Assembly (NCBI GenBank): GCA_035533875.1
Contig: DATLSZ010000001.1
Coordinates: forward strand, 3,614-67,613
DNA: 64,000 nucleotides
Direction: 5' to 3'
From: Candidatus Acidiferrales bacterium
GTDB taxonomy: Bacteria; Patescibacteriota; Microgenomatia; Levybacterales; UBA12049
In this document: positions 25,167 to 61,635 of the stretch, piece after piece
Layout: each line of letters starts with the position of its first letter
Numbering within the stretch: position 1 is the stretch's first letter
Translations under genes and position numbers: made by a program
The notes under the pieces: model-generated
Database searches by the model: none
Told to the model about the DNA's origin: nothing
What the model saw: the letters and a program-made list of their open reading frames with translations, nothing else

Positions 25167-25195
25167 TTGACGTCTCTGCACTTTTGGCGCATGAT
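25167..25195 (+). promoter_or_regulatory. sigma70-type promoter of split transketolase operon
   Basis: TTGACG-17 nt-CATGAT; in-frame GTG 25203 lies 7 nt after the -10. Confidence 0.45.
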
Positions 25196-26189: not shown

Positions 26190-27179
26190 ATGTTGAATCC
26201 TAACTTAAAACTAAATACCAAACTCTTCGACAAAGATGTCGCAACCGCGCCAACTCGGGAAGGTTTTGGCACGGGACTCGTGGCGCTGGGTGAAATCAAT
26301 CCGAGAGTCGTAGCATTGGCCGCGGACCTGACTGAGTCAACATACGCACATAAATTTGCTGAGAAATTCCCCGATAGATTTTTCCAAATTGGTATCGGCG
26401 AGCAGAATATGGCATCAATCGCAGCAGGGCTTGCGGAAAGTGGTAAAGTCGCTTTCATCTCTTCATACGCAACGTTCTCACCGGGCAAAAATTGGGAAAC
26501 GCTGAGAACCACCGCAGTCTACAACGAAGCAAATGTCAAAATTGCAGGCCATCACTCAGGCATCATGACCGGACCTGACGGCGCCACCCATCAGGCAACA
26601 GAGGACATCGCCATCACCCGCTGCTGGCCAAAGATGCATGTCTATGTCCCTTGCGATGCTATCGAAGCACGCAAAGCAACCATCGCGTCTGTTGATATCT
26701 CCACCCCAGTCTATCTCCGCTATACCAGAGATAAAACACCAGTCATTACTACCGAAGAGACGCCATTCAAAGTCGGCAAACTGCAAACGTTTTGGGTGAA
26801 CGAAAATCCCAAAGTCACCATCTTTGCGACCGGCTACATGCTGTATTATGCACTCGTTGCCGCAAAAGAATTGGAGGAAGAAAAAATCCCTGTCCTCGTC
26901 GTCAACGCAGCGACGATAAAACCGCTTGATGAAGAAGGAATTCTTAACGCAACTCGTGATTCACAAGCAGTTGTTACGGTCGAAGACCATCAAGTCGAAG
27001 GCGGTATGGGATCTGCTATTGCTGAACTACTTGCAAAGACCACTCCACTTCCGATAGAATTTATAGGGTTGCAAAATACATTTGCCGAGTCAGGCAAGCC
27101 TGCCGAGCTTGTCGAAAAATACGGCATGGGAGTGAAAGATATCAAACTGGCTGTAAAAAGAGTTATGAGAAGAAAGTAA
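26190..27179 (+). CDS. transketolase, C-terminal (pyrimidine-binding) subunit of split enzyme
   Basis: FQIGIGEQNMASIAAGLA, GPDGATHQATEDIA, VTVEDHQVEGGMGSA. Confidence 0.9.
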   Translation: MLNPNLKLNTKLFDKDVATAPTREGFGTGLVALGEINPRVVALAADLTESTYAHKFAEKFPDRFFQIGIGEQNMASIAAGLAESGKVAFISSYATFSPGKNWETLRTTAVYNEANVKIAGHHSGIMTGPDGATHQATEDIAITRCWPKMHVYVPCDAIEARKATIASVDISTPVYLRYTRDKTPVITTEETPFKVGKLQTFWVNENPKVTIFATGYMLYYALVAAKELEEEKIPVLVVNAATIKPLDEEGILNATRDSQAVVTVEDHQVEGGMGSAIAELLAKTTPLPIEFIGLQNTFAESGKPAELVEKYGMGVKDIKLAVKRVMRRK

Positions 27180-37999: not shown

Positions 38000-40282
38000 A
38001 TGCACCCACGCTCCCGTCTAAAAAAATCCGTGTATACCTACAAACCCCATGGCATAAAACGGCTGAAAAAAATCAACTGGAAATCCTCATTCCAGAAAAT
38101 AATAAAAGGCCACAAACGTGCTCTTTTGATTATTTTCATCATCTTTATCATCATCATGATTCTCATTCCACCGCTCACCTACCTTTACTTTGCCAAAGAT
38201 CTCAAGAATAAAGAAAGTGTGATGAACCGGCAGCAGACCGGACTCACCCTTCTTGACCGCGACGGCAAACAATTCTATACCTTCGATCTGGCAAAAACGA
38301 TCACCTACATCCCGATCACCGACATCCCCAAGTCCGCGCAAGATGCAGTTGTCTCGGCAGAGGACAAAAATTTCTACACCAATCCCGGCTTCTCAATCAC
38401 CGGCATCATCCGCGCGTTTCTTGCCGATATCTTTGCTGGCCACATCGTCCAGGGCGGCTCCACCATCACACAGGAGCTTGCCAAAAATGCCTTCCTGAGT
38501 TCTTCCCGCAATGTCCTCCGCAAGTATCAGGAGCTGGTCTTGGCAGCGGAGTTGAACAGACGATTCAGCAAACAAGACATCCTGGAAATGTATCTCAACT
38601 CCGTATATTTCGGCGAAGGTGCTTTTGGCATCCAGAACGCGTCGGAAGCATATTTCGGCATCCCGGCAAAGCAGCTCGATCTCGCACAAGCCGCGCTTCT
38701 TATCGGCATCCTTCCTGCGCCATCCGCGTATTCTCCGATCTCCAATCCGCCGGATCTTGCGATAGAGCGGCAGAAATTTGTACTCAGTCAGATGGTTCAG
38801 AATGGTTACATCACACAAGATCAGGCAACTCAGGCTGAGAGTGAACCGCTGCATTATAATCCCAACAAAATACAATCCGGCAACATCCTCGCTCCGCATT
38901 TCGCGATCTATATCAAAAATCAATTGATCAAGCAGTACGGCGAGGAGCGGGTTATCCGTGACGGCTTCCGTGTGACAACGACGCTTGACAGCAATCTGCA
39001 AAAATATGCCGAAGGCTCGGTCAACACCCAAGTGACTCGACTCAAGTATGATCATGCTACCAACGGCGCGCTTGTCGCGCTTGATCCAAAAAACGGTCAG
39101 ATCCTCGCGATGGTCGGCAGTTATGATTTCACTGACACGAGCTTCGGTCAGACCAATATGGCCATCACGCCCCGCCAGCCAGGATCATCCTTCAAACCGA
39201 TTATCTACGGCCGCGCACTTGAAGATCATCTCATTACTCCGGCGACAATTCTGCAGGATGTGAAGACGACATTTCCCGGCAATTATACGCCACATGATTA
39301 TGATTACCGTTACCGCGGGCCTGTCACAGTCCGGCGTGCTTTGGCGAATTCACTCAATATCCCAGCGGTTGAGGTGATGGAAAAAGTCGGCATCCCCAAT
39401 GGGCTTGATGAAGCACAAAAGCTCGGCATCTCCACACTGACTGCCGGCAACTATGGACTATCCCTCGTCCTCGGCGCGGGTGAAGTGCCGCTGCTGCAGA
39501 TGACCAACGCGTATGCGACGTTTGCTGATCAAGGAGTGTATCATGACACAACCGGTATCATGGATATCAAAGATAAGTACGGGAGTACGGTCTCCACGCC
39601 GACCAATTTCTTTTCTTTTTTACAAACGCTTAATCCGCTAACGTGGTTCAGCTCAACACCGAGTGATAACAAACAAGTGATGAGCAAAGAGACGGCGTTC
39701 CTTCTCTCATCGATTCTCTCTGACAACAATACACGATCGGAGGAATTCAGCGGTGCGCTCACGATCAATCGCCCTGCAGCGGTGAAAACGGGAACAACAT
39801 CTGATTACAAGGATGCGTTGACGATCGGTTACACGCCGAGTTTGGTGGTGGGTGTCTGGGTCGGCAACAATGATGACAAGCCGATGGACAATATCGCGGG
39901 ATCGCTGGGTGCCGCGCCGATCTGGCGCAATGTGATGGAATATGATTTGATGGGCAAACCCATTGAGCATTTTGAGGTGCCGACGTTTATCGTGAGTGAG
40001 ACGGTCTGCCCGGGAGCTGCAGCCGGTTATATCCATACCTACACAGAGTATTTCATCGCCGGGACACAGACAAACTCTTGCGGCCAGCCGACCATCTTCC
40101 CGACCTTCACCCCAACGCCGACACCCAACGGTCCGACACCAACACCGCAACCCGGACCAACAAATAAACCCAACCAGCCAACAAATACTCCGGCTCCACA
40201 ACCAACAAGTACACCAGCGGTCTTACCTACCCCGACTTCAATTTTGTTGCCAACTCTCCCCATCCCTACACCGACGATCTAA
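38000..40282 (+). CDS. class A penicillin-binding protein (transglycosylase + transpeptidase), Pro/Thr-rich C-terminal tail
   Basis: GT51 motifs EDKNFYTNPG, GGSTITQEL, RKYQE; transpeptidase SSFKP (SxxK), SLN, KTGTT. Confidence 0.95.
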   Translation: MHPRSRLKKSVYTYKPHGIKRLKKINWKSSFQKIIKGHKRALLIIFIIFIIIMILIPPLTYLYFAKDLKNKESVMNRQQTGLTLLDRDGKQFYTFDLAKTITYIPITDIPKSAQDAVVSAEDKNFYTNPGFSITGIIRAFLADIFAGHIVQGGSTITQELAKNAFLSSSRNVLRKYQELVLAAELNRRFSKQDILEMYLNSVYFGEGAFGIQNASEAYFGIPAKQLDLAQAALLIGILPAPSAYSPISNPPDLAIERQKFVLSQMVQNGYITQDQATQAESEPLHYNPNKIQSGNILAPHFAIYIKNQLIKQYGEERVIRDGFRVTTTLDSNLQKYAEGSVNTQVTRLKYDHATNGALVALDPKNGQILAMVGSYDFTDTSFGQTNMAITPRQPGSSFKPIIYGRALEDHLITPATILQDVKTTFPGNYTPHDYDYRYRGPVTVRRALANSLNIPAVEVMEKVGIPNGLDEAQKLGISTLTAGNYGLSLVLGAGEVPLLQMTNAYATFADQGVYHDTTGIMDIKDKYGSTVSTPTNFFSFLQTLNPLTWFSSTPSDNKQVMSKETAFLLSSILSDNNTRSEEFSGALTINRPAAVKTGTTSDYKDALTIGYTPSLVVGVWVGNNDDKPMDNIAGSLGAAPIWRNVMEYDLMGKPIEHFEVPTFIVSETVCPGAAAGYIHTYTEYFIAGTQTNSCGQPTIFPTFTPTPTPNGPTPTPQPGPTNKPNQPTNTPAPQPTSTPAVLPTPTSILLPTLPIPTPTI
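40251..40282 (+). repeat. direct repeat copy 1 (3' end of PBP1A gene including stop)
   Basis: CAACTCTCCCCATCCCTACACCGACGATCTAA. Confidence 0.85.
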
Positions 40283-42568: not shown

Positions 42569-42698
42569 TTTATTTATCTATTATACAGTTATTATTTAAA
42601 TCAGCTAGTGAATTATCGTTAACAGCAGATCGCTCTGTTTTTGACATGCAATAATGTTCCAACTTTTTACTTCCCTTCTCCTCTCCCATCACATCCCG

Positions 42699-42792
42699 GT
42701 GTGAGTGAGATCATTGCACTGACTTCTGCAAAGGTATATTGTGCAAAAGATATGAATGGCAAATTACTTCTTATTTTTACTCTCCTCTTTGG
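42699..42792 (+). repeat. promoter + signal-peptide module, copy 1
   Basis: GTGTGAGTGAGATCATTGCAC...GGTATATTGTGC...ATGAA...CTTCTTATTTTTAC.C..CTC.TTGG aligns along ~95 nt with 43711-43805. Confidence 0.75.
42714..42740 (+). promoter_or_regulatory. promoter inside duplicated module, copy 1
   Basis: TTGCAC-15 nt-TATATT; ATG 42752 lies 11 nt after the -10. Confidence 0.45.
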
Positions 42793-43600
42793 ATTATTGC
42801 TCATCGCCCCGGGACAACAGAGCGCAAATGCTGCAGATAAACAAGATGTTGCGTGGAATCTCTCAGCAAGTGTCATGCCGGGACCGCCCTATGGAGCACA
42901 AGACATTCCCGGTTCTGATACAGCATCAAAACTAACAGTCAAACAATCCAATGGAAATTCAGCGGTAAAAATTATCGGCGACATGAACGGTCTTACTCCC
43001 AATACGACCTATTACGCAAAGACAACCAAAAGCTACACGAAAGGCGCTCCAGAAAGAGTACCTATGGATCCTAATGGATATAGTGGAATGAATTGGCATG
43101 ATGCAACAAATAATATTGATCATGACGAATTTAATACTTCCCAGGATATAGCAACAGGAACGTTTAGCGGATATGATTGTTACCCGACAGGCACTTGTGA
43201 TTACCAGTCAGATGTAACCGGAACGTATTCAGGTAACCAGTACACCATCACTTTTGCATCCTATAATGACCCAACTTCGGTGTATAATACCCCACTAACA
43301 CTAACAGGCACAATTCAGCCAAACGGTGGGATAGAGAGTAACGCTGATTCACCGATTCAATGGACCGGGGCTGGGTATGCAGTCATAAATGCTATGCCTG
43401 ACTTGTTTAATACGAATATCAAGATACCGGTATTTACAACTAATAATACTGGTTCAGCGAAATGGACGATAAAGGTGCCGAATTCAGTTTTGTCTGCAGG
43501 TTCAAACGAAATGGCTGTGTGGATATTTACCGGAAACAACACCATGGGTCCACCTACCTATGTTTTACTGATAAGTGATAACTTCACCATAACAAAATAA
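42752..43600 (+). CDS. exported protein, function unknown
   Basis: Signal peptide MNGKLLLIFTLLFGLLLIAPGQQSANA. The track's extension from TTG 42641 covers the promoter. Confidence 0.7.
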   Translation: MNGKLLLIFTLLFGLLLIAPGQQSANAADKQDVAWNLSASVMPGPPYGAQDIPGSDTASKLTVKQSNGNSAVKIIGDMNGLTPNTTYYAKTTKSYTKGAPERVPMDPNGYSGMNWHDATNNIDHDEFNTSQDIATGTFSGYDCYPTGTCDYQSDVTGTYSGNQYTITFASYNDPTSVYNTPLTLTGTIQPNGGIESNADSPIQWTGAGYAVINAMPDLFNTNIKIPVFTTNNTGSAKWTIKVPNSVLSAGSNEMAVWIFTGNNTMGPPTYVLLISDNFTITK

Positions 43601-43710
43601 TATAACCACAAGAGTTTGCAATAAAGATAATACATTCAACTCATCACTCCGCAGCATAAACATTTTCTGTTTTGGATATAGGATAGATGTCCCCCATTTA
43701 TTACGTCCTT

Positions 43711-43805
43711 GTGTGACAGAGATCATTGCATGGTACCTGCAAAAGGTATACTGTGCGGACAGACATGAAACGCAACCCACTTCTTATTTTTACCCTGCTC
43801 CTTGG
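43711..43805 (+). repeat. promoter + signal-peptide module, copy 2
   Basis: GTGTGACAGAGATCATTGCAT...GGTATACTGTGC...ATGAA...CTTCTTATTTTTACCCTGCTCCTTGG. Confidence 0.75.
43726..43752 (+). promoter_or_regulatory. promoter inside duplicated module, copy 2
   Basis: TTGCAT-15 nt-TATACT; ATG 43765 lies 12 nt after the -10. Confidence 0.45.
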
Positions 43806-45063
43806 CCTCTTGTTCGTCGCACCCCACCAATACAAAGCACATGCACAAGACGCGGACATGAATGCGGGCGAAACAATAACCAACAACATCATTATGCCAG
43901 AAAGCGCAACAACACAACAAGCAGATACCGTCCAAAACGGATTCAAGATCTGGCAATTTAATATGCAAAATAATGGACAGACAGATATTACCAACCCTAC
44001 AATTACTCTGAAAAGTGGATACGATTCTTCCATCTTTGATTCGGTTCCTTCATTCCCTTATATTTATAACCTCCCAACCCTTACACCCGGTCAGGATTAT
44101 AGTACAGATTGGTTGATGCCGACCGATGCAGCAGATTTTAATATCATCCAACCAAATTATTCTACGGCAGTCAGCTTCACCACTGGATATGATTCGACAA
44201 GAACTGTCAGTCCTGAAATGATCCCTGTTGGTGGTACACAGCAGACGGTTACAATTACCCTGACACCGGTAGATTCCCAGTATGCGTCTGAACTCTCTGG
44301 TCTTGGTATTTTACTTTCCACAAACGTACCTGACGTAACTGTAGTTTCTACAACCTATCCGGCCAATCTTGATCAGGGAGAGCAAGTTTCAAGTTCATCA
44401 GAATCCGGTGATCTAACGGATTGGACGCTTAATAATAGTCAACTGAACAAACAATATACATTCACAGTGATTCTTAACGTACCCAACAACACCGGTCAAC
44501 CGTTTGCTTTTCGACCGGAAGTCCACTTCTGGGGTAGTTGGAAAACGGCATTTCAAGAAGCTGTCGGTCCTAGTGTTACCATTACCGACTCATCACTTGA
44601 TGGTAATACCCCGGGCATCGGTGCTGTGACCTATGCTATTGCAGAAACAGACCGCACATGGTCCTACGGCCAACAACTACAGCGTGATGTGATATATCAG
44701 GGTACGCAGCCGGCGGGCCCGATGGACGTATCTATTCTCATAAAACCGGGGAGCAATCAACCTGCACCCATTAATCCAAAAAGCCAGGGAGTTATTCCGG
44801 TTGCCATCCTTTCAACTGATACCTTTGACGCGACAACCGTTGATCCAAAAACAATAACATTTGGCAAAATGGGTATGGGACCCAAAGTATCATCAACTCA
44901 AAATTCGCTTGAAGATGTCAATAAAGATGGAATGACTGACATGGTACTCCACTTTCCAAATGAACTTGAGTGCGGTGTGACAACTGCTACACTAAACGGT
45001 CAGACAAAAGACGGCCAGCAGATCAACGGCTCCGCATCGGTTAACACAGTAGGCTGCAACTAA
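43765..45063 (+). CDS. exported beta-rich protein, function unknown
   Basis: Signal peptide MKRNPLLIFTLLLGLLFVAPHQYKAHA, paralogous to the previous gene's. The C-terminal segment GVIPVAILSTDTFDATTVDP...DVNKDGMTDMVLHF resembles extracellular Ig-like/Ca-binding modules. Confidence 0.7.
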   Translation: MKRNPLLIFTLLLGLLFVAPHQYKAHAQDADMNAGETITNNIIMPESATTQQADTVQNGFKIWQFNMQNNGQTDITNPTITLKSGYDSSIFDSVPSFPYIYNLPTLTPGQDYSTDWLMPTDAADFNIIQPNYSTAVSFTTGYDSTRTVSPEMIPVGGTQQTVTITLTPVDSQYASELSGLGILLSTNVPDVTVVSTTYPANLDQGEQVSSSSESGDLTDWTLNNSQLNKQYTFTVILNVPNNTGQPFAFRPEVHFWGSWKTAFQEAVGPSVTITDSSLDGNTPGIGAVTYAIAETDRTWSYGQQLQRDVIYQGTQPAGPMDVSILIKPGSNQPAPINPKSQGVIPVAILSTDTFDATTVDPKTITFGKMGMGPKVSSTQNSLEDVNKDGMTDMVLHFPNELECGVTTATLNGQTKDGQQINGSASVNTVGCN

Positions 45064-45091
45064 CTTCACTTGTTTAAGTTTAAACATAACC

Positions 45092-45120
45092 TTGACTTCT
45101 CCCCTTCTTTTTTCCATAGT
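45092..45120 (+). promoter_or_regulatory. sigma70-type promoter, leaderless configuration
   Basis: TTGACT-17 nt-CATAGT; ATG 45127 lies 6 nt after the -10. Confidence 0.55.
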
Positions 45121-45126
45121 TAAAGT

Positions 45127-45507
45127 ATGAGTAAGAATAAACTTCCTCAGTGGGCTACGACGATGACGCCATTTTCCAAATACCTCGCACTTTCAATGCT
45201 TGTCATTTTACCTGTTCTCGCGTTTTTTTACGGCACGTATTATCAACGGCAGATCGATAAGAAAAAACCACAGCAGGGAACAATTATATTTAAAATACTC
45301 CCCACGCGATCACCGTCTGCTTTTCCATCGATTTCTCAACCGATTTCGGCGTCTCCCTCCCAACCAGCAAGTGGCAGCATAAAATGCAATACCAACGCCG
45401 ACTGTCCGCCGGACTATCTCTGTACACAAGTGGGACCAATTGTTTATACACCACATAAGAAACCCCAACTGACATGCTGGAAAAAAGGCTCTGCTATGCC
45501 TTTATAA
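45127..45507 (+). CDS. small membrane-anchored Cys-containing protein
   Basis: TM LALSMLVILPVLAFFYG, Ser/Pro linker, 4-Cys C-terminal module. ATG lies 6 nt after CATAGT. Confidence 0.6.
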   Translation: MSKNKLPQWATTMTPFSKYLALSMLVILPVLAFFYGTYYQRQIDKKKPQQGTIIFKILPTRSPSAFPSISQPISASPSQPASGSIKCNTNADCPPDYLCTQVGPIVYTPHKKPQLTCWKKGSAMPL

Positions 45508-45701: not shown

Positions 45702-46283
45702 ATGAATCAGGCTTTATCTCCCAAACCGAAAGTATTCCGGCAGAACTGGAATGTATCACAACCATTTATGCAGAAATACTTCGTCGAGAATTTATTTTCA
45801 CTCGCAGTAATCCAGAAAAGAACAAGAACGAGGATAACTATGGACGTACTATACAACCAAATCAACACACAAGAAATTCCCCTTGTCACGGATCTCCTGC
45901 TGGAAAATCTCCCGTCGGTTCTTGCAACCACCTGCTACAATGAGCAAGATCTCCCCTTCTGTGAAGAAGTACAAAATACCGAAATCGGACACCTCTTCGA
46001 ACATATCCTTCTTGAATACCTCTGCCAATACAAAATGAAAAAAGGCGCCAGACGCGCAACCTATGCCGGACGGACCACATGGAACTGGGTTCGTGATCCT
46101 TTTGGGAGATTTCATATTCACCTCACCTGCGGCACAAAAGACGCGGATATCCTGCCAATTGCGCTGGAACAAACAGTCGGACTCATGAAGATAATTCTCG
46201 GATACAATCCGCAACCACTTTTCTCAACAAGCGCGAGATCGACTGCCCGAAATGGATTAAAGAATGGAGAAAGGAGGTGGTGA
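45702..46283 (+). CDS. hypothetical protein
   Basis: 193-aa ORF. In-frame ATG 45840, preceded by GAGGA, is an alternative start giving 147 aa. No family recognised. Confidence 0.5.
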   Translation: MNQALSPKPKVFRQNWNVSQPFMQKYFVENLFSLAVIQKRTRTRITMDVLYNQINTQEIPLVTDLLLENLPSVLATTCYNEQDLPFCEEVQNTEIGHLFEHILLEYLCQYKMKKGARRATYAGRTTWNWVRDPFGRFHIHLTCGTKDADILPIALEQTVGLMKIILGYNPQPLFSTSARSTARNGLKNGERRW

Positions 46284-46287
46284 TATG

Positions 46288-47286
46288 TTATTGAAATTTC
46301 CCAAAGAGGTATTGCGCGCGCTTTTTGTTATGTTCTGTCACATCAACAACAACAATTCCGCGGTCAAACTGCCCGTATATAACAACAGCAGACAATGGAG
46401 CAAGGAGTATCGCCGGAATCGCCAGTAAATCCTCCTCACCATTTACGGCTATCAGCTGCTCTGTGTGGTTTGTTAAATAATTGGAAATTGCTGCAAATAT
46501 CGTTTTCGCTGCTTTTTGAGTAATTGTCCCTGCGGGGTTTTCCGTTGTTCTGCGTGTCATTTCAGAAAATGAATTGGCACGTGTGGGCTCTAAATTCTGC
46601 CTGCGCGTCTTACCGTCGGTGATATTGATCTCCGCCAGTCTTCCTGCCTGCTGAGCGGACGCTGCCACAATATCGCCGACTGCGATCAAAATCGTACGCG
46701 GCTGAAGTAATGAAATAACTTCATGCATATCGGTATAGACCGGCCCGATCGGATGTCGCATCTCATCACGCGCTTCTTCGGGAAGAACATACACTTCCTG
46801 TCTTTCAAATAATTTGCTGTAGGACTTCCCTTCCCGGTCGATAAGTCCCTTGCGGATCCGCGCTGAAGAGATCATCTCACCGTCATCACCAAGAACAAAA
46901 GGAACTGTGATGATCTCTAAAGATTTAAAACCCCGTTTATCCCGTTCCTCATTTATTTTCAGCGCATTTGGCTTGGTGCTTTCGGTGACAAAGATCGCGT
47001 CAATAGAATCTGAATCGATACTCGTTCCGTAGATGTCATTGATCTGGATTATTTCTGAGCGATCGGTAAAACCATTGTCTGAAAGGAATTGTACAACAGC
47101 TTTTTCGCGGTCATTATATTCTTCAATAAGCAGCGCCAATTTTTTATTTTCATACAATTCCACAGTCGCGATACCGATAGTAACGTTCTCGGATTGTTCA
47201 AAAGCAGTTGTTAATAATTTTCGATGTCCGGCATGAAAGCGGTCAAACGTCCCGCCGACCACTGAGAGGTGAAATTGATACGACAT
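46288..47286 (-). CDS. fusion of archaeal-type phosphopantetheine adenylyltransferase and DUF359 (GTP-dependent dephospho-CoA kinase family)
   Basis: N-terminus VVGGTFDRFHAGHRKLL (cytidylyltransferase HxGH). C-terminal half VGDIVAAS...ITDGKTRR...NGEEDLLAIP...VIYGQFDRGIVVV matches DUF359. ATG 47286 lies 7 nt after TATACT. Confidence 0.75.
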   Translation of the reverse strand: MSYQFHLSVVGGTFDRFHAGHRKLLTTAFEQSENVTIGIATVELYENKKLALLIEEYNDREKAVVQFLSDNGFTDRSEIIQINDIYGTSIDSDSIDAIFVTESTKPNALKINEERDKRGFKSLEIITVPFVLGDDGEMISSARIRKGLIDREGKSYSKLFERQEVYVLPEEARDEMRHPIGPVYTDMHEVISLLQPRTILIAVGDIVAASAQQAGRLAEINITDGKTRRQNLEPTRANSFSEMTRRTTENPAGTITQKAAKTIFAAISNYLTNHTEQLIAVNGEEDLLAIPAILLAPLSAVVIYGQFDRGIVVVDVTEHNKKRAQYLFGKFQ

Positions 47287-47293
47287 ACACAAA

Positions 47294-47322
47294 AGTATAC
47301 TGTGCTGAGCCAAATTCCGCAA
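47294..47322 (-). promoter_or_regulatory. sigma70-type promoter, leaderless configuration (PPAT-DPCK fusion)
   Basis: TTGCGG-17 nt-TATACT, then 7 nt, then ATG 47286. Confidence 0.55.
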
Positions 47323-47523
47323 CGTTATGTTTTGAGAATAATGTGCTTAGTGATTTCTTATAAGCGAGGAAAAAGAATTTTCGCCAGGACGAATGCCTCT
47401 TTCACATAGACTAGCATTCTGATGGTGCTCGGAGAGCGGAGGTACAAATTAAACTAAAACTCTAAAGGCGGGTCCAAGAAAAAAATCATTCCGAGCGATA
47501 AATAAGTTTGATGCTTGATCAAA

Positions 47524-48805: not shown

Positions 48806-49783
48806 TTAAAATAAATGCTTTTTTATCAAATGTGCGCCCTTACTCGGATAATTAATAATCGTGTTTTGTACTTCCTCCATTTCTGAAAGCTTCTTTACAA
48901 CTTTTTTCGCATTCTTTTTTTCACAAATAATATGGACGTCTTGTCCAGTATTGAGAGTAAAATAAACTTCCAACCCTTCTTGCCGCCATTTTTTTACCAG
49001 ATGTAACAAACGCAAACTCGCTGGCAATAAATAGATAAGTGAAGGTTGAGATGTAAGATAAATCGCATGTAATTCAAGTGCCTCAGCTTCTATAACGTTT
49101 CCAAAAGCGGTGAAATTTTTTTCTTTTATATATCGCTTAACCAGACGCATTTTTTCTTTATTAAGTTGCAATCTTCTGTCAAAAAATAGACTCGTTGTTG
49201 CAAGTTTATGTCCCTCTGTAGAACTGATTTCTTTTTTATTGGTACTGACAACCGCAACAACGTCGATAATATCCCAATGATCTTTTGGGTATAACGAAAC
49301 AGCATATGAAGTCTCACTCGTATCGCCATCAAGCCACTCAACAAATCCGTCGGGAATTGATCTGCAAGCAGAACCTGAACCCTGTCTTGCCAGAATCGAT
49401 AATTCTTTTTCTGAAAGTTTCAAACCCGCCGCTGCGGCAGCAGCAACTGTTAATGCTGCAAATCCAGACGCAGAAGATGAAAGACCCGTTGAAGTAGGAA
49501 AATTATTTTTAGAAATAACTTTTGCTTTATACTGTATTTTTGTTAAAGAACGTATTCTATCCAAATGCTTAATGACTCTATTCCCTTCGATTATTTCTTG
49601 AACATTATTAACGGTAATGCTATCTTGATAAAAATCTGAATTAAATTCAACCGTTGTTGTCGTAAGAAGATTACTTAAATTCATTGAAATACTCCCGTTT
49701 TTAGGAAGTCGTAAAACCTCATCTTTGACTCCCCAATATTTGATAAACGCGATATTTGATGGTGCGACTGCTGTAGCTTTCAT
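48806..49783 (-). CDS. mvaD: diphosphomevalonate decarboxylase
   Basis: NIAFIKYWG, GLSSSASGFAAL, GSGSACRS. Confidence 0.9.
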   Translation of the reverse strand: MKATAVAPSNIAFIKYWGVKDEVLRLPKNGSISMNLSNLLTTTTVEFNSDFYQDSITVNNVQEIIEGNRVIKHLDRIRSLTKIQYKAKVISKNNFPTSTGLSSSASGFAALTVAAAAAAGLKLSEKELSILARQGSGSACRSIPDGFVEWLDGDTSETSYAVSLYPKDHWDIIDVVAVVSTNKKEISSTEGHKLATTSLFFDRRLQLNKEKMRLVKRYIKEKNFTAFGNVIEAEALELHAIYLTSQPSLIYLLPASLRLLHLVKKWRQEGLEVYFTLNTGQDVHIICEKKNAKKVVKKLSEMEEVQNTIINYPSKGAHLIKKHLF

Positions 49784-49785
49784 AG

Positions 49786-50769
49786 TTATTGTAAACTCTT
49801 TTCTACACGGACTCCTTCCGCATTTGTCTTGACAGCAATCACTTCACCACCGGCAACAGTAATTGCTTTTTCAACATCCTTTTTCTTTTCTCTTAGCGCA
49901 AGTGCAATCATGCAGTCTCCTCCGCCGGCGCCTGACAATTTTGCACCGTATGCTCCTGCACTTCGCGCGGCATAATTCATCGCCGCCAATGTCTCGGTCT
50001 CTACGCCATAAGCGCTCAATAATCCTTCATTGATATTCATCAACTCACCAAACTTCTCAAAATCTCCAGCGATTAATGCTTTCTTTCCTGTCTCAACACA
50101 TGTCGTACTGACGTCAAAAAGAACAGGATAAATTTTGGGATATTCTTTTAACTTTGCTCCTACCATCTTGACGAGTGTCGGTGTATCACCTTTGCTCCCG
50201 CTATATCCAACAATGAGCGGAAAATTCGCAACAGAAATAGGGGTAATTACTTTTCCTCCACCAACAAAATATAAAATACCTCCATAAATTCCCGCAGCGA
50301 TATCAAACCCGGACCCAACACCTTGAATATCTATAACTGTTTTGTATGCAAGATTAAATAACGATTTGTTATCCAATTTACTCCCGGTTAACTCTGAAAG
50401 AGCTTTCACCATACAGACTGTCGATGCAGATGAAGATCCGAAACCTACTTGTGAAGAAAACGCTGATGACGTCTCGACTCGCAAGCCGCCTTTGAATTGG
50501 TATTTTTTCAGAAAATTTTTAACAGCTATCTCGACAAATTTCGCACCTTTCGGGATCTCTCCTTTACCGAGATCCTTCAAACTTTTTTTATACCCAATCA
50601 CCTTTACACCGGGCGCCTCCAACTGCAATTCCGGGACATCCAAACGGGTAACAGTCGCTTCCATCCGCTGATCAACTGCGGTCACGAGACACGGTCTGTT
50701 ATGCACAACAGCATGATCCCCCAAAAGCATCAATTTCCCCGGTGCTGATACAGTTATTTTTTTCATCAA
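49786..50769 (-). CDS. GHMP kinase, probable phosphomevalonate kinase
   Basis: SAPGKLMLLGDHAVV, GFGSSSAS, KLSGAGGGDC. The second GHMP kinase in a mevalonate operon that lacks an isopentenyl-phosphate kinase. Confidence 0.65.
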   Translation of the reverse strand: MMKKITVSAPGKLMLLGDHAVVHNRPCLVTAVDQRMEATVTRLDVPELQLEAPGVKVIGYKKSLKDLGKGEIPKGAKFVEIAVKNFLKKYQFKGGLRVETSSAFSSQVGFGSSSASTVCMVKALSELTGSKLDNKSLFNLAYKTVIDIQGVGSGFDIAAGIYGGILYFVGGGKVITPISVANFPLIVGYSGSKGDTPTLVKMVGAKLKEYPKIYPVLFDVSTTCVETGKKALIAGDFEKFGELMNINEGLLSAYGVETETLAAMNYAARSAGAYGAKLSGAGGGDCMIALALREKKKDVEKAITVAGGEVIAVKTNAEGVRVEKSLQ

Positions 50770-51806
50770 TTTAACATCACTCCTTCACTTCCCAGCATAA
50801 TATCATACAATGGGTTTTTATTTAATAATAAACTTTTTTTCAGTTTTTCTTTCTCAGGATGATAGACAAGAAGCATTCCTGATCCTTTTTTCCTTCCTCC
50901 TGCACCACAGATCTTTGCAGCCCCTCCTTCTTTTTCAATCAGTGCAATGAGCGATTTTGCCGAATCCGAAACAACGCCTATTTTTTCGAGATTTCGCTCT
51001 CCTCTTTTGATTAGATCCATAAGATTCTCTTCATTACTGTTTTGTAAAACCGAAACCAAATCTCGGGTTACTTGTTCCTGATCAGAAAGAAACTGCGCAA
51101 ACATGCTCCTGTTCTCTTTTTGCAATCTCCCGACAAGACTTACCATTTCACCGGTAGTTTCAGTTGGTCTGCCGCTGTCTATCAATAAAAAATTTGCCTT
51201 TGATTGTAACAATTTTTTGGTAAAAGATTTATTTTGAAAAAGCCCAATGCCTCCATAACAACAAATGGTATTATCTCCTCCTGAAGGGTTTCCATGGATT
51301 CGCTGTTCGATTCGAAAAGCGATGGTGTTAACCGTTTCTTTATCAATCTTTTTCGTAACAAACTGCATTACAGCTGCAACAATAGCTACCGATAGTGCTG
51401 CCGAAGAACCGAGCCCTGATCCGATAGGGATCGCTGAATTGATTATAAGATCAAACTCGGATGGTAGTCTTTTTTGTAAAAAAGCGATCGTTTCTCCTAT
51501 TGCAATTGCAGGCAAATCTACACTATGTAACGTCAATAATGAGCTGTCGTTATTCTTTTGAAATGCATCCCATTTTTTCTCCGCCTCTTTGGTAAGAGCA
51601 ATAATTTCATTGGGAGAATATGTCATTTTTTTATTGAGATTTTCTGAGGTGATAGTGATAGTGTCACTATCTGAAGAGATCAACTGTACAGAGCATCGCA
51701 TGTTAATCGCTGCGAGAAGAGCCGGTTTGCCGTAGACCACCGCATGCTCACCCATCAAATGAATTTTTCCCGGGGCAGAAACAGTTATGCTATTCTGCTT
51801 TTTCAT
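50766..51806 (-). CDS. mvk: mevalonate kinase (GHMP family)
   Basis: SAPGKIHLMGEHAVVYGKPALLAAI, GSGLGSSAA, KICGAGG. Overlaps both neighbours by 4 nt. Confidence 0.75.
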   Translation of the reverse strand: MKKQNSITVSAPGKIHLMGEHAVVYGKPALLAAINMRCSVQLISSDSDTITITSENLNKKMTYSPNEIIALTKEAEKKWDAFQKNNDSSLLTLHSVDLPAIAIGETIAFLQKRLPSEFDLIINSAIPIGSGLGSSAALSVAIVAAVMQFVTKKIDKETVNTIAFRIEQRIHGNPSGGDNTICCYGGIGLFQNKSFTKKLLQSKANFLLIDSGRPTETTGEMVSLVGRLQKENRSMFAQFLSDQEQVTRDLVSVLQNSNEENLMDLIKRGERNLEKIGVVSDSAKSLIALIEKEGGAAKICGAGGRKKGSGMLLVYHPEKEKLKKSLLLNKNPLYDIMLGSEGVMLN

Positions 51807-52102
51807 ACCGGTTTTACTTTTACGCCATACGTGATTATATCTTCTTTACCGGGAAATCCGACTCGACGTATGACAGTAATTACTTTTTGACCGACCGTTA
51901 ATTGCTCTTCATCGTAATCAACCAGCTGGAGTGTTCTCTTTTCTTTATCATCAAATGCAACTATTGCTACGACATAGGGAACTTGCTGTTGGAATCCTGC
52001 CGGTGCAACATAAATTCTCGTCCAGACCACTATTTTTCCAACTCTTCCAAGTTCTTTATGTAATTCTTTTGTTTTTCTCCAAGATGCAATTGTATTTGTC
52101 AT
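51803..52102 (-). CDS. DUF35-like OB-fold protein lacking the zinc ribbon
   Basis: 99 aa, position between thiolase and kinase, OB-like core VPYVVAIVAFDD...QKVITV; contains no cysteine. Confidence 0.6.
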   Translation of the reverse strand: MTNTIASWRKTKELHKELGRVGKIVVWTRIYVAPAGFQQQVPYVVAIVAFDDKEKRTLQLVDYDEEQLTVGQKVITVIRRVGFPGKEDIITYGVKVKPV

Positions 52103-52106
52103 AAAT

Positions 52107-53246
52107 TTAAACCTTTAATATATGGACGACTGCAGTCGCTCCGGTTCCACCGATATTCTGCGTCAGACCGACCTTTGCTTTCGTAACTTGTTTCTTCCCA
52201 CCGCGACCAAGCAATTGATCATAAATCTCAACCAATTGTTTGACTCCTGTAGCTCCAACCGGATGGCCGCATGCCTTCAGACCGCCTGATGTATTCACCG
52301 GCTTTTTTCCGCCAAGTCGTGTCGCCCCGCTGGCAACATATGCTCCGCCTTCACCTTTTTTGCAGAATCCCAGATCTTCCATCGCCAGTAATTCGGCAAT
52401 CGTGAAACAATCATGCACTTCCATAATGTCTATATCTTTTGGTGATACTCCTGCAAGAGAAAACGCTTTTTTCGCTGCATTTTTTGTCGCAGCAAGTTCG
52501 GTCAGACTTGCCCGGTCGGAAATAGCAATGGTATCGGTGACAACCGTGCTTGCGATAATTGAGACTTTCTTCTTTGATGAACTTTTTTTGGCAGTCAATA
52601 CGAGTGCCGCCGCGCCGTCTGTTATCGGTGACGAATCAAGAAGGGTGAACGGATCGGTCACTTTGGAACTATTCAAAACTTTTTCAATGGATACTTCAAA
52701 AGGAAATTGCGCTTTACTATTGAGACTTGCATGATAATGATTCTTTACCGCGACGTGTGCCATATGTTCCCGCGTCGTACCAAACTCCTGCATGTGTGCT
52801 TTCGCAAGTAGCGCATAGAGCGCCGGAAATGTCAGACCTGCTTCTCGCTCTTCTTCAGATCCTGCACGCATGAGAAGCGAGCTGATTTCCTCCGGCGGAA
52901 AATCCGTCATCTTTTCGACACCTACAACAAGAACTGTTTCATAGGTACCGGCAAGAAGTGATTGAATTGCCAGATGCACTGCCAGTCCACCGGATGCGCA
53001 TGCGCCTTCGATCTTAAATGCACTTTTATTAATCCCCAGTGCCGATGTAACTGCCGCGCCCAAATGTTCTTGTCTCTGCAAGGTGCCGGAAAGCATATTG
53101 CCGACAAAAACTCCTTCAATATCTTTCAGAGAAACAGCAGCATCTTTTATGGCTTCAGATGCGGCATCGGTCGCAAGATCGATAAGTGTTTTTGTCCAAT
53201 GTTCACCAAATTTTGTTACCGCAGCGCCTGCTATGTGTACATTCAT
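52107..53246 (-). CDS. thiolase (archaeal-type acetyl-CoA acetyltransferase)
   Basis: Active-site EGACASGG, VHDCF, GGLKACGHPVGATG. Confidence 0.85.
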   Translation of the reverse strand: MNVHIAGAAVTKFGEHWTKTLIDLATDAASEAIKDAAVSLKDIEGVFVGNMLSGTLQRQEHLGAAVTSALGINKSAFKIEGACASGGLAVHLAIQSLLAGTYETVLVVGVEKMTDFPPEEISSLLMRAGSEEEREAGLTFPALYALLAKAHMQEFGTTREHMAHVAVKNHYHASLNSKAQFPFEVSIEKVLNSSKVTDPFTLLDSSPITDGAAALVLTAKKSSSKKKVSIIASTVVTDTIAISDRASLTELAATKNAAKKAFSLAGVSPKDIDIMEVHDCFTIAELLAMEDLGFCKKGEGGAYVASGATRLGGKKPVNTSGGLKACGHPVGATGVKQLVEIYDQLLGRGGKKQVTKAKVGLTQNIGGTGATAVVHILKV

Positions 53247-54274
53247 AATTTTTTGGTTTTCTTCAAATATTCCAGATATCCAATTTCCTTTTTCTTCGTT
53301 ATTAATTCGGAGACCGGAACTCCGTTTCTTTTTGCGATATGGCTGGTCGTTTCAAAGATAAATCCGTCGGATCCGGCGCCCGATCCGTATGACACAAAAA
53401 AGATTTTCTGATGAGGCTTTGCGATATCGAGAACCGCTGCCAAACCAAGCAGTGCTGCCGCGGTATACGGATTGCCGATCTTATCAACAGTCAATGAAGG
53501 CTTGAGTTGTTCATCAGTGAACCCGAGCTTTTTTGCAGCAACACGGGGGAATTTTCCGTTTGGCATATGGATCACACAATAATCAAAATCGTTGGGTGAC
53601 AAACCGCTCTGTTGTAAAAGCTTCTTCCCTTCAGAGATGACATGATGGAAATATGCAGGCTCGCCGGTGAAGCGTCCCGCGTGTGAAGGATATTTTGCGC
53701 CGTCTCTCCGCCAGAAATCGGGGGTATCAGAGGTGAATGAAGACATGGATAAAATTTTTGCGATTATCTTATCGGTATCACTTCCCAAAATGTAGGATGC
53801 CGCTGCGCTTCCTGCGGTAAATTCCAGTATGTCTCTTGGCTTTGCCTGTGCGGTATCCGCGCCAATCACCATTCCGTATTTGATTTTTTTACTATCAACA
53901 AGACCAGCAGTCATACCCATCCCAGCAGTCGCTGCCTTGCAGGCAAATTCCAAATCAGCCGCGAAATAATCAGTACCGACTCCAAGAATCTCAGCAATTG
54001 TTGAAGATGTCGGATTGACCGCGTATGGATGGCTTTCAGACCCGACAAAAACACTTTGGATTGCCGATGCGTGCAACTTTGCTTTTTGCAACGCAGCAAA
54101 ACTTGCCTCAACGCCCATGCTTACCGCGTCTTCGTCATAATTGGGAACTGCTTTTTCCTCTATATGCAGAGCAGTCATGATCTCGGCCGGATTTTTATCC
54201 CACGCGAGTGCGATCTCTTCCAATCGTATTCTGTATCGGGGAACATATACCCCGTATGAAACTATACCTGACAT
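53243..54274 (-). CDS. hydroxymethylglutaryl-CoA synthase (archaeal-type)
   Basis: GSESHPYAVNPT, EFACKAATAG (catalytic Cys), HMPNGKFP, SYGSGAGSD. Confidence 0.85.
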   Translation of the reverse strand: MSGIVSYGVYVPRYRIRLEEIALAWDKNPAEIMTALHIEEKAVPNYDEDAVSMGVEASFAALQKAKLHASAIQSVFVGSESHPYAVNPTSSTIAEILGVGTDYFAADLEFACKAATAGMGMTAGLVDSKKIKYGMVIGADTAQAKPRDILEFTAGSAAASYILGSDTDKIIAKILSMSSFTSDTPDFWRRDGAKYPSHAGRFTGEPAYFHHVISEGKKLLQQSGLSPNDFDYCVIHMPNGKFPRVAAKKLGFTDEQLKPSLTVDKIGNPYTAAALLGLAAVLDIAKPHQKIFFVSYGSGAGSDGFIFETTSHIAKRNGVPVSELITKKKEIGYLEYLKKTKKL

Positions 54275-54349
54275 AAAATTTGGATTTAAGATTTAAGAAA
54301 TAAGATTTAAGATTTTTTACTCTTTAATCCTAAATCTTTAATCGTAAAT
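54275..54349 (-). repeat. tandem-unit hairpin element, family 3 (GATTTAAGA/TCTTAAATC words)
   Basis: GGATTTAAGATTTAAGAAATAAGATTTAAGATT-TTTTA-CTCTTTAATCCTAAATCTTTAATCGTAAATC; fills the HMGR-stop to HMGS-start spacer. Confidence 0.7.
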
Positions 54350-55495
54350 CTACTTTTCTCCTCTTCCCAACTCTTTGTGCGCTCGTCCCAAACTTCCCTG
54401 TGCAAGGCTTGCCAACAGAGAAAGCTCACCAGCTAGAACAGCCCCACCGATAATTTCTGCGAACGTTCCAACGTTATTTTCACCCTCAACTCCAAGAATC
54501 TCTAATGCTTCTTTCTGCGTTGCCAACCCGGTTCCTCCTCCTACAGTTCCGACAATAAGCGCTGGTAAATAAATAGAAACATACAGATCTCCCTTTGGCA
54601 ATACTTTCGTCGTTGTTATCCCCATGCTACCCTCAACGACATGCGCCGGATCCTGACCTGTTGCGATAAAAAGTGCCGCGATAATATTTGCATAATGCGC
54701 GTTAAAGCCCATCGAACCGCTCATCGCTGATCCAATCATACACTTCCCTAGCCATACATCAAACATCTCCTCAGCAGTTGTCTTAAGAACTGAATGTAAA
54801 ATATCTTTTTGCAAAACAGTTTCTGCCCAGACAACAAACCCTCTATTATTAATAAAATTCAGCCAGGACGGTTTTTTATCAACATCAAAATTCCCGGCAA
54901 CCGAAAGACACTTCGCACCGGTCTCTTCCTCAATTACCTGCGCCATCGCTTCTGATGCGATCGTCACCATATTCATCCCCATCGCATCGGCGGTATCAAA
55001 AGCAAACCGCACAAAAAGATACTGTCCAACCTCACGCACCAGTACGTTTTCCATGTGCAGATGACGGGAAGTTTTTTCCGCAGTCTCTGCTAATCTTTTT
55101 TTGTTTTTTTCAATCCAAAGACGCGCCGCCTGTCGTTCTTTCGACGATGAAACAACAAAAACCGGTCCGCGAGTTTGTCCTTCACGACGGGAACTAACAA
55201 ATGCACCGCCTGATACATTTATCGCTTTACAGCCGCGCGCAACAGATGCGATAAGTGCTCCTTCTGTTGTTGCCAACGGCAGATAAAAATCACCGTGAGC
55301 AAATCCGCCAGAAACTGCAATTGGCCCGGCAATTCCCATAGGAACCTGTGCAGCGCCGATCATATTCTCGCAATTTTTTGTCGATGCAGCCTGTTCATCG
55401 AATGTATATTTTCCAATATTGTTTAGACTAAGCCCCAATTCATGCTCTACTGCAGCCCTTCGCTCGGCAGCAGTCTTATATGTTCTCACGTTCAT
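54350..55495 (-). CDS. hydroxymethylglutaryl-CoA reductase, class I, soluble
   Basis: ENMIGAAQVPMGIAGP, TTEGALIASVARGCKA, DAMGMNMV, GTVGGGT. Confidence 0.9.
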   Translation of the reverse strand: MNVRTYKTAAERRAAVEHELGLSLNNIGKYTFDEQAASTKNCENMIGAAQVPMGIAGPIAVSGGFAHGDFYLPLATTEGALIASVARGCKAINVSGGAFVSSRREGQTRGPVFVVSSSKERQAARLWIEKNKKRLAETAEKTSRHLHMENVLVREVGQYLFVRFAFDTADAMGMNMVTIASEAMAQVIEEETGAKCLSVAGNFDVDKKPSWLNFINNRGFVVWAETVLQKDILHSVLKTTAEEMFDVWLGKCMIGSAMSGSMGFNAHYANIIAALFIATGQDPAHVVEGSMGITTTKVLPKGDLYVSIYLPALIVGTVGGGTGLATQKEALEILGVEGENNVGTFAEIIGGAVLAGELSLLASLAQGSLGRAHKELGRGEK

Positions 55496-59687: not shown

Positions 59688-60656
59688 TTATGCGTGCAGT
59701 TCTTTGCTTATCATCTCCGCAACAGATAGTACGTGTAATTTTGGAAAATACTTTTCCTCCGAGATAAACACCGTATCGGTGACATACACGCGGTCAATGC
59801 TGGATTCCTGCAATAGCTCCGGTGCCTCTTCGGAAAAGACGGCATGAGTTGCAAAAACATCACATGAGACAACACCGTTGTCTTTCAGAAGCTGCGCCGA
59901 CTGCACAACTGTATTGCCGCTTGAGACCATATCATCTACTATAAGTGCCCGTTTGCCGGGGAGATCTGAAGGATTGAGTGGCCCTTCAAATTGTTTTATA
60001 GTAATATCCCCTGTCCGTAAATCCCGATCTTTTACCGTTGCTATCCACGGAATGCCACTGAGCATTTCAGACATCTGCTCGATCCGTCTCAGTCCTCCCA
60101 TATCGGGTGAAACAAGGATTGTGTCTTTTAGGAAGTCATCAGGATTATTGCTATCAACAAGTGTATTAAACGCTTTACTCTGTATCCGCTCTGCAAAAAG
60201 AGGAAGTGCTGAAAGATGTGTTATCGGAATATGAAACAATTCCGGAATTTTGATGGAGTGCAGATCAAGAGCTATCACTTTGTCAACTTTCAATGATTCC
60301 AAAAATCGGATCATCACATCAAGAGAAACTACTTCTCCTTCACGAAAAACATGATCCTGCCGCTGATACCCAAGATATGGGATGACGGCAGTTACTGATT
60401 TTGCACCATTTCGCCTCAATGCATCGATGATAAAAAAGAGCTCAATGTAATTCTGGTCCACAGGTGTATTGGTCGATTGGATAACAACAGTGTTTTCTTC
60501 AAGAACATTGGCATTGAGCTTGATCCGCCGTTCTCCGTCAGGAAAAATCATGGTCTCAATCGGAGATAGTTTTGTCGTAAGGTCCTTTGCAATTGCTTCT
60601 GCGAGCGGCTTGTTGGAAGAGCCTGAAAAAAGTTTCATGAAGCTATTGTACCACAC
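59688..60656 (-). CDS. prs: ribose-phosphate pyrophosphokinase paralog (divergent copy)
   Basis: FPDGERRIK, AVIPYLGYQRQD, ALIVDDMVSSGNTV. GTG 60656 lies 1 nt after the upstream stop; ATG 60638 is an alternative start. Confidence 0.85.
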   Translation of the reverse strand: MWYNSFMKLFSGSSNKPLAEAIAKDLTTKLSPIETMIFPDGERRIKLNANVLEENTVVIQSTNTPVDQNYIELFFIIDALRRNGAKSVTAVIPYLGYQRQDHVFREGEVVSLDVMIRFLESLKVDKVIALDLHSIKIPELFHIPITHLSALPLFAERIQSKAFNTLVDSNNPDDFLKDTILVSPDMGGLRRIEQMSEMLSGIPWIATVKDRDLRTGDITIKQFEGPLNPSDLPGKRALIVDDMVSSGNTVVQSAQLLKDNGVVSCDVFATHAVFSEEAPELLQESSIDRVYVTDTVFISEEKYFPKLHVLSVAEMISKELHA

Positions 60657-60657
60657 A

Positions 60658-61635
60658 TCACAATATTAGAGCCTGACTGATAGATTCACCGGTTCTTATT
60701 CTGCGGATTGCTTCTGCCAGAAGCGGAGCAACAGTAACAACAGAGATTTTTTTGTTATTCAAAACTTCCTCTCTGGGTTTTATAGAATCAGTGATGATCA
60801 TCTCTTCAATAGTTGATTCATTGATTTTTTTCAACGCATCTCCTGAAAATAATCCATGCGTCGCGGCAACACGCACGCTCCTAGCACCTTTTTCTTTTAT
60901 GAAATTTGCCGCATGGACTATCGTACCGGCAGTATCAATCATGTCATCAACCAACAACACATCTTTGTCTTTTACATTACCAATGATATTTACTGTCTCT
61001 GAAACATTGTTCACTTCCAAATCCCGCTCTTTATAGGCAATTGCTATTCCTTCCGCTTGCAGTAATTTTGCATAACCGGCAGCCCGCAAAAAACCACCCT
61101 TATCAGGTGAAGCAACTACGAGATTGTGCATATTACGTTCTTTAAGTGCCGGTAATAACGAGTAGCTGCCGTAGACATTGTCCCATGGCTGCTTGATCGA
61201 TCCTTCCATTTGTTCTGAATGGATATCAAGCGTCAATATCCGATCAATTCCTGCATTGACCAAAAGTGAAGCAACAGCTGATGCGCTGATTGGGACACGG
61301 GACATTTCTTTTCTATCCTGACGGGAATAACCAAAATACGGGATAACCGCAGTAACTTCAGACGCATTCGCACGACGTGCAGCATCAGCCATAAGAGCAA
61401 GTTCCATGATATGATCATTTACCGGGATAGAGGTAGATTGTATGAGGAATACATTTCTGCGGCGTAAATTTGGCTTGATCCGGACTCGGATCTCTCCGTC
61501 GGAAAAAATACTGATCGGACAGGTAACTTCTACCTTCAGTATTTTAGCAATTGATTCCGCGAGCGGAGGATTGGCACGGCCCGCTAACAGAATAAATTCA
61601 TCAGATTCCATAGCTGTATTTGTTTGTCCGATCAT
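60658..61635 (-). CDS. prs: ribose-phosphate pyrophosphokinase (canonical copy)
   Basis: FSDGEIRVR, AVIPYFGYSRQDRK, VLLVDDMIDTAGTI. Confidence 0.95.
   Translation of the reverse strand: MIGQTNTAMESDEFILLAGRANPPLAESIAKILKVEVTCPISIFSDGEIRVRIKPNLRRRNVFLIQSTSIPVNDHIMELALMADAARRANASEVTAVIPYFGYSRQDRKEMSRVPISASAVASLLVNAGIDRILTLDIHSEQMEGSIKQPWDNVYGSYSLLPALKERNMHNLVVASPDKGGFLRAAGYAKLLQAEGIAIAYKERDLEVNNVSETVNIIGNVKDKDVLLVDDMIDTAGTIVHAANFIKEKGARSVRVAATHGLFSGDALKKINESTIEEMIITDSIKPREEVLNNKKISVVTVAPLLAEAIRRIRTGESISQALIL

Follow-up and report, generated by a model that had tools for sequence, protein, structure and literature searches.

The stretch of DNA analyzed here, 64 kb of contig DATLSZ010000001.1 (assembly GCA_035533875.1) and called the window throughout, carries on its minus strand a gene predicted to encode the last two enzymes of coenzyme A (CoA) synthesis as a single protein. 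The gene is an intact, uninterrupted open reading frame (ORF) of 332 amino acids, running from an ATG at 47286-47284 to a TAA at 46290-46288 (Table 1). The program-made ORF starts further upstream, with a TTG at 47322; the ATG position is where homologues of 330-334 amino acids begin, and the called protein in the Joint Genome Institute (JGI) data, P0001, has 332 amino acids and is 100% identical to the window protein. An initial annotation, made from short motifs, had described the product as a fusion of an archaeal-type phosphopantetheine adenylyltransferase (PPAT) with a DUF359 dephospho-CoA kinase (DPCK). The motifs it quoted (GGTFDRFHAGH, VGD, DGKTRR, GEEDLLAIP and YGQFDRGIVVV) are all present in the translation, and the domain search it proposed returned both families from Pfam, PF01467 at residues 9-146 (E=1.2e-9) and PF04019 at residues 207-331 (E=1.1e-30).

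The N-terminal half matched NF001985, the NCBIfam model of the archaeal-type PPAT subfamily, with 154.5 bits for a cut-off of 104, residues 7-156 aligning to model positions 6-153 of 157. A sequence search of the PDB retrieved 3do8, a PPAT-type protein of Archaeoglobus fulgidus (E=9e-18, residues 10-153), and the bacterial CoaD model TIGR01510 scored 15.6 bits for a cut-off of 103.3. Based on these matches, this half is assigned to the archaeal/eukaryotic type of PPAT and not to bacterial CoaD. It carries two signatures of the nucleotidyltransferase alpha/beta phosphodiesterase superfamily, and their conservation was followed in an alignment of 82 sequences, 80 of them from genome loci and the other two being the window protein and an outgroup. 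Both histidines of the HxGH motif, H18 and H21, are kept in every sequence, and S141 and R145 of the second signature, ISxxxxR, are each kept in 81 of the 82.

The match of the C-terminal half to DUF359 spanned model positions 1-125 of 126 with 106.2 bits for a gathering score of 25. NF041125, the model of the Thermococcales DPCK that depends on guanosine triphosphate (GTP), aligned to residues 165-328 (E=8.9e-27), and the PDB sequence search placed 8jvc, the GTP-dependent DPCK of Thermococcus kodakarensis, on residues 167-327 (E=1e-18). No match to the P-loop DPCK CoaE (PF01121) was found in the window protein at E<=1. The three aspartates listed in Table 1 have counterparts in the T. kodakarensis protein TK1697, which shows GTP-dependent DPCK activity and whose deletion leads to CoA auxotrophy; its D48A and D67A mutants are severely impaired, and D125A has a milder effect with reduced growth (PMC6650551).

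The catalytic columns of both halves were also invariant in two further alignments, of 19 and 62 CPR (candidate phyla radiation) homologues. Since the catalytic residues are conserved across alignments, the constraint is that expected of an active two-step enzyme. An AlphaFold2 model of the window protein, built with the 62 homologues, reached a mean pLDDT (predicted local distance difference test) of 93.4 and a pTM (predicted template modelling score) of 0.89. When the model was compared with the PDB by Foldseek, the top matches were 8jvc and 8jvg on the kinase half (target template modelling score, TM-score, 0.82-0.88, E=3e-15, root-mean-square deviation 2.6-3.0 A), followed by 3do8 on the PPAT half (target TM-score 0.75-0.83) and next by more than 30 bacterial PPAT entries with scores of 0.53-0.63.

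Table 1. Coordinates of the fusion gene, its domains and signature residues, and its neighbouring features in the window. HMG, 3-hydroxy-3-methylglutaryl; AF2, AlphaFold2.
Feature	Coordinates	Strand	Basis
Complete gene, predicted bifunctional PPAT / DUF359-type DPCK	46288..47286	-	ORF, Pfam/NCBIfam/PDB matches, P0001, AF2 model
Archaeal/eukaryotic-type PPAT domain, residues 7-156	46819..47268	-	NF001985, PF01467, 3do8, Foldseek
HxGH nucleotidyltransferase motif H18-A-G-H21 within GGTFDRFHAGH	47224..47235	-	read from sequence
ISSARIR, residues 139-145, second nucleotidyltransferase signature	46852..46872	-	aligns with ISSTRIK of 3do8
DUF359 / arCOG04076 DPCK domain, residues 165-331	46294..46794	-	PF04019, NF041125, 8jvc, Foldseek
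Asp205 in VGD = TK1697 Asp48	46672..46674	-	alignment to 8jvc; 82/82 sequences
Asp224 in ITDGKTRR = TK1697 Asp67	46615..46617	-	alignment to 8jvc; 82/82 sequences
Asp286 in GEEDLL = TK1697 Asp125	46429..46431	-	alignment to 8jvc; 82/82 sequences
Intergenic spacer uppS/fusion gene, 237 bp	47287..47523	-	ORF map
HMG-CoA reductase	54350-55495	-	
HMG-CoA synthase	53243-54274	-	
Thiolase	52107-53246	-	
99-aa DUF35/OB-fold protein (PF01796)	51803-52102	-	
GHMP kinase	50766-51806	-	
GHMP kinase	49786-50769	-	
Diphosphomevalonate decarboxylase	48806-49783	-	

Because both domain assignments hold and conservation extends to the catalytic residues in each half, the best reading is the one advanced by the initial annotation, in which the last two steps of CoA synthesis would be carried by archaeal-type enzymes on one polypeptide. 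We consider it very probable that the window protein is a bifunctional archaeal-type CoA synthase leading from 4'-phosphopantetheine to CoA, and it is from the homologues that we infer its enzymatic activities and nucleotide specificity. The N-terminal domain would adenylylate 4'-phosphopantetheine with adenosine triphosphate (ATP) to yield dephospho-CoA. The DUF359 domain, whose Rossmann-like fold is related to that of thiamine pyrophosphokinase and has no homology to the P-loop CoaE, would add a phosphate to the 3'-hydroxyl of dephospho-CoA and so yield CoA, the phosphate donor being probably GTP by analogy with TK1697. The enzyme would plausibly work on scavenged 4'-phosphopantetheine or a scavenged pantetheine-derived precursor, since genes for the upstream CoA steps were not seen within the 64 kb. 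CoaBC, PanK, CoaD and CoaE were found neither among the about 60 ORFs of the window nor in the +/-10 kb flanks of four relatives, and PF01121 had no match in the other window ORFs of >=120 amino acids at E<=1e-3. For reduced bacteria, a scavenging route with PPAT and DPCK only is an accepted scenario (PMC8721197). The thiolase, HMG-CoA synthase and HMG-CoA reductase genes nearby point to a demand for CoA in the cell, which supports the assignment as CoA synthase.

The window protein belongs to one large fused family common to CPR bacteria, DPANN archaea and Poseidoniales (marine group II, MGII) archaea. With sequences clustered at 90% identity, a word-indexed search gave 809 homologues (E<=1e-5), the best 120 of which all contain PF01467 and PF04019, mostly in about 330 amino acids and with 95-100% query coverage. 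An exhaustive search of 1.84 billion cluster representatives gave 724 clusters at 50% identity (E<=1e-30), and among the best 150 representatives almost every alignment runs close to the full length of the query. In GTDB, taken as one genome per species, at least 570 species have a relative, and the best 80 of these loci all encode the fusion. CPR genomes with the fusion that are closed or nearly complete include OZ246394.1 (1.61 Mb), ERZ25039485 contig_6640 (1.14 Mb) and CAWJTN010000001.1 (1.23 Mb). On the CPR side these 80 comprise Levy-, Roizman-, Chisholm-, Gottesman- and Kaiserbacteria as well as Paceibacterota; the archaea among them are DPANN (Aenigmatarchaeota, Norongarragalinales) and many Poseidoniales/Thalassarchaeaceae. 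The fusion is one more archaeal-type housekeeping enzyme common to CPR bacteria and archaea.

Several related records carry apparently wrong organism labels (L002, L004, L005, L008, L010 and others; L071; L076; L042/L043; P0383). Third-party annotation (TPA) assemblies named 'uncultured Gammaproteobacteria/Pseudomonadales' cluster among Roizman- and Levybacteria; in the tree a 'Balneola sp.' falls inside Poseidoniales and a 'Weeksellaceae' beside a Parcubacteria sequence. L042, a Norongarragalinales archaeon, and L043, from Kaiserbacteria, are nearly identical, and HVA96063.1, which falls in the 90%-identity cluster of the window protein, is labelled 'Candidatus Acidoferrales'. The Gammaproteobacteria/Pseudomonadales, Balneola and Weeksellaceae labels were treated as errors, these sequences interleaving with named CPR or Poseidoniales.

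In a full-length neighbour-joining tree rooted on a chimera of 3do8 and 8jvc, the Poseidoniales formed a clan apart with 100% bootstrap support, and DPANN grouped with all the CPR sequences. A second neighbour-joining tree covered the kinase half alone (172 columns, 200 bootstraps) and included 16 archaeal DPCKs of the standalone type. Here fused and standalone sequences were separated with just 12.5% support, and two of the standalone ones fell among the fused sequences. The Poseidoniales clan (97-100%) and a DPANN trio (100%) are the robust groups in the trees. Since the kinase-half tree lacks resolution, no claim can be made for a single origin of the fusion or for a direction of transfer between domains.

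A longer variant was seen in nine of the 80 related loci (L009, L019, L022, L024, L027, L032, L036, L038 and L078), most of them in one well-supported Roizmanbacteria-related clade, and likewise in the proteins P0096 and P0104. These proteins have about 500-550 amino acids, with an archaeal-type nicotinamide mononucleotide (NMN) adenylyltransferase (NMNAT) domain (GRFQPFHxGH) first, then PPAT and then DUF359; in the loci the extra domain lies ahead of the match at about 10001, in an ORF that shares its frame. P0104 scored 130 bits with NF002243 for a cut-off of 127. Judged from its domains, such a protein would be a trifunctional NMNAT-PPAT-DPCK. We found no description of an NMNAT-PPAT fusion in the open-access literature.

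The genes of the window are bacterial, among them a class A penicillin-binding protein (PBP1, 38000-40282), sigma-70 family factors, RecR, DnaX and UppS, and the named close homologues come from Levybacteria/Levyibacteriota, Roizmanbacteria, Saccharimonadales and 'Patescibacteria group'; the host is therefore a CPR/Patescibacteria bacterium of the Microgenomates group. The minus strand also carries, upstream of the fusion gene, a complete mevalonate cluster (48806-55495), after which come a Nudix-type Idi and UppS. The initial annotation had placed the gene right after an acetyl-CoA-consuming operon, and this is borne out in the window, where the mevalonate cluster is upstream, but the adjacency is not conserved in relatives. 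A tblastn search with the mevalonate proteins of the window gave no match within +/-10 kb in any of the 80 related loci, so that a conserved functional link to the mevalonate operon was ruled out. In L001 (65% identity) and L082 (58%) the order is CysS-sigma-Idi-UppS-fusion-CphN-like, with Idi adjoining sigma-70 and the mevalonate cluster absent. In L083 (46% identity, a 1.61-Mb chromosome) an AA_kinase gene and an unknown gene occupy its place. Thus, relatives at 46-65% identity keep Idi-UppS-fusion without mevalonate genes at that position; in more distant CPR relatives the neighbours are unrelated. The mevalonate cluster of the window contains an archaeal-style trio of thiolase, HMG-CoA synthase and the 99-aa DUF35/OB-fold protein, sits between Idi and the sigma-70 gene and looks like a variable isoprenoid island.

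At its 3' end the fusion gene converges with a gene at 45702-46283 (+), with 4 bp between the stop codons. The latter encodes a 193-aa protein with only the N-terminal domain of cyanophycin synthase-like proteins (PF18921, 3.5e-8), and this CphN-like neighbour is conserved in L001, L002, L082 and L083; L002, one of the apparently mislabelled records, has both the CysS and the CphN-like synteny in common with the window. A scan for promoters and terminators around the fusion gene detected neither a convincing sigma-70-like site nor a terminator beyond the level expected from shuffling, and Rfam and transfer RNA scans of the window were empty. Elsewhere in the window, a stretch of 5 kb contains two transketolase systems, a full-length transketolase-like gene (612 aa) at 22472-24310 (+) and a split pair at 25167-26066 (+) and 26190-27179 (+) encoding an N-terminal part of 299 aa and a C-terminal part of 329 aa. 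Tandem paralogues of ribose-phosphate pyrophosphokinase (phosphoribosyl pyrophosphate synthase) lie at 59688-60656 and 60658-61635 (-), an arrangement also seen in L082. Several sizeable ORFs without a Pfam match occur in 42641-45507 (+) and 447-2710 (319, 445 and 126 aa; also 169, 432 and 122 aa), the one of 445 aa having a signal-peptide-like N-terminus.

Some points weigh against a bifunctional CoA synthase. The PPAT half did not reach the Thermococcales PPAT equivalog NF041124 (103.9 for a cut-off of 290 bits) and the kinase half stayed below the equivalog cut-off of NF041125 (93.7 for 300 bits), which the fusion proteins of MGII (94.0 bits) and DPANN (82.1 bits) missed as well. NF041125 is a lineage-specific model, and failing it means that a protein is not a Thermococcales orthologue; it does not mean that it is not a DPCK. 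Orthology to the Thermococcales enzymes is something we infer and the models do not certify, although a miss would be expected for a distant lineage. Moreover, the activities of the fused subfamily and of its bacterial members are predictions, the choice between GTP and ATP as donor is not legible from the sequence, and the absence of CoaBC, PanK, CoaD and CoaE covers the 64-kb window and the flanks of four relatives, so that scavenging is weakly supported. The missed cut-offs, together with the breadth of the PF01467 superfamily and weak matches to flavin adenine dinucleotide (FAD) synthetase and NMNAT models, would suit a protein in which one or both domains have drifted, the nucleotidyltransferase acting on flavin mononucleotide, NMN or a sugar phosphate and DUF359 on another nucleotide cofactor, with no CoA synthase resulting. 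We regard such a drift as quite unlikely because NF001985 was passed with a margin, against just 12-18 bits for the FAD synthetase and NMNAT models, and because the top structural matches are a PPAT and a DPCK. Furthermore, the same two-domain pairing persists in three distant lineages, which argues for consecutive steps of a pathway, and where NMNAT is wanted it has been added in some relatives as a separate third domain.

A more serious alternative, though still an improbable one, accepts the fused family but sets it beside canonical CoaD and CoaE, as a redundant or specialised paralogue that could, for example, recycle 4'-phosphopantetheine from acyl carrier protein and would not be the sole CoA route. 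The inspected part of the genome is 64 kb, and coaD and coaE could lie elsewhere; however, no flank inspected contains either of them, small CPR genomes rarely retain redundant cofactor enzymes, and the strict conservation of catalytic residues across hundreds of CPR lineages suggests an essential role. That the gene is an artefact of assembly or binning, such as a chimeric join or a piece of an archaeal contig, instead of a real bacterial gene, might be suspected from the implausible labels in related records (Gammaproteobacteria, Balneola, Weeksellaceae, Acidoferrales), which indicate that binning or labelling errors are common around the fused family. Yet the gene lies within a continuous 64-kb run of bacterial genes, its G+C content of 0.447 is near the 0.426 of the window, with no sign of recent transfer in this composition, and the synteny CysS-sigma-Idi-UppS-fusion-CphN-like-PBP recurs in independent assemblies including the 1.61-Mb chromosome, all of which makes an artefact extremely improbable.

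A wider reading can be put forward tentatively, its chances falling somewhat short of even. Microgenomates-group CPR would have replaced CoaD and CoaE outright by the fused archaeal-type PPAT-DPCK, a module exchanged ready-made between archaea (DPANN, Poseidoniales) and CPR. These bacteria would make CoA solely from 4'-phosphopantetheine scavenged from the host or the environment, and in one Roizmanbacteria-related clade the module would have grown into an NMNAT-PPAT-DPCK that completes both nicotinamide adenine dinucleotide and CoA from scavenged precursors. If the fusion is the sole CoA gene of these organisms, 4'-phosphopantetheine is the precursor they need from their hosts, which would be useful for cultivation attempts.

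The PPAT-DUF359 fusion is already known, and the window copy is a correct but ordinary member of its family. Domain fusions had implicated DUF359 in CoA synthesis (Makarova et al., PMC6393860), and the fusion of PPAT with arCOG04076 in uncultured archaea was the clue by which the archaeal DPCK was identified (Shimosaka, Makarova, Koonin and Atomi 2019, PMC6650551). In the latter study PSI-BLAST returned archaeal members only and the family was given as archaeal (PMC6650551). We found no mention of the fusion or of DUF359 in CPR bacteria in the open-access literature. NCBI names the CPR fusion proteins 'pantetheine-phosphate adenylyltransferase', usually describing the PPAT half alone, and JGI names vary between 'cytidyltransferase-like protein', 'GTP-dependent dephospho-CoA kinase' and 'PPAT/uncharacterized protein (UPF0218 family)'. 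As a consequence of PPAT-only labels, metabolic reconstructions of CPR would score the last CoA step as missing though it is encoded. Nothing here changes the current understanding of the enzyme family itself; what is modestly new is its little noticed distribution in CPR bacteria and its incomplete annotation in databases.

Compared with known proteins, the closest in architecture are the archaeal fusions of the type of AIF21550.1 (group II/III Euryarchaeota), which have the same order of N-terminal PPAT and C-terminal DUF359 in about 330 amino acids. Poseidoniales representatives show 30-36% full-length identity to the window protein and have all catalytic residues in common with it; the difference is that the host here is a CPR bacterium, and that CPR sequences group with DPANN in the neighbour-joining tree with Poseidoniales separate. 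TK1697 (8jvc/8jvf/8jvg) is homologous to residues 165-331 with about 30% identity, but it is a GTP-dependent single-domain protein of 175 aa, whereas the window protein has two domains and its use of GTP is proposed by analogy. The COG1019-like PPATs of PRK00777/NF001985 (TK2128 of T. kodakarensis, the PPAT of Pyrococcus abyssi and 3do8) have HxGH, ISSxRIR and the fold in common with residues 7-156, which in the window protein are fused to a kinase. The bifunctional PPAT/nucleoside triphosphate phosphatases of NF002250/PRK01170 align through their N-terminal PPAT with residues 8-156 and differ in their C-terminal partner; membership of the window protein in that family was rejected, with 119 bits over the whole protein for a cut-off of 489. 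Eukaryotic COASY also joins PPAT and DPCK in one chain, with PPAT first and with the same type of nucleotidyltransferase as the window protein. However, the COASY kinase is a homologue of the P-loop CoaE whereas the window kinase has the unrelated DUF359 fold. Since the kinase domains are non-homologous, COASY and the PPAT-DUF359 fusions arose independently, and together they represent a clean example of convergent fusion.

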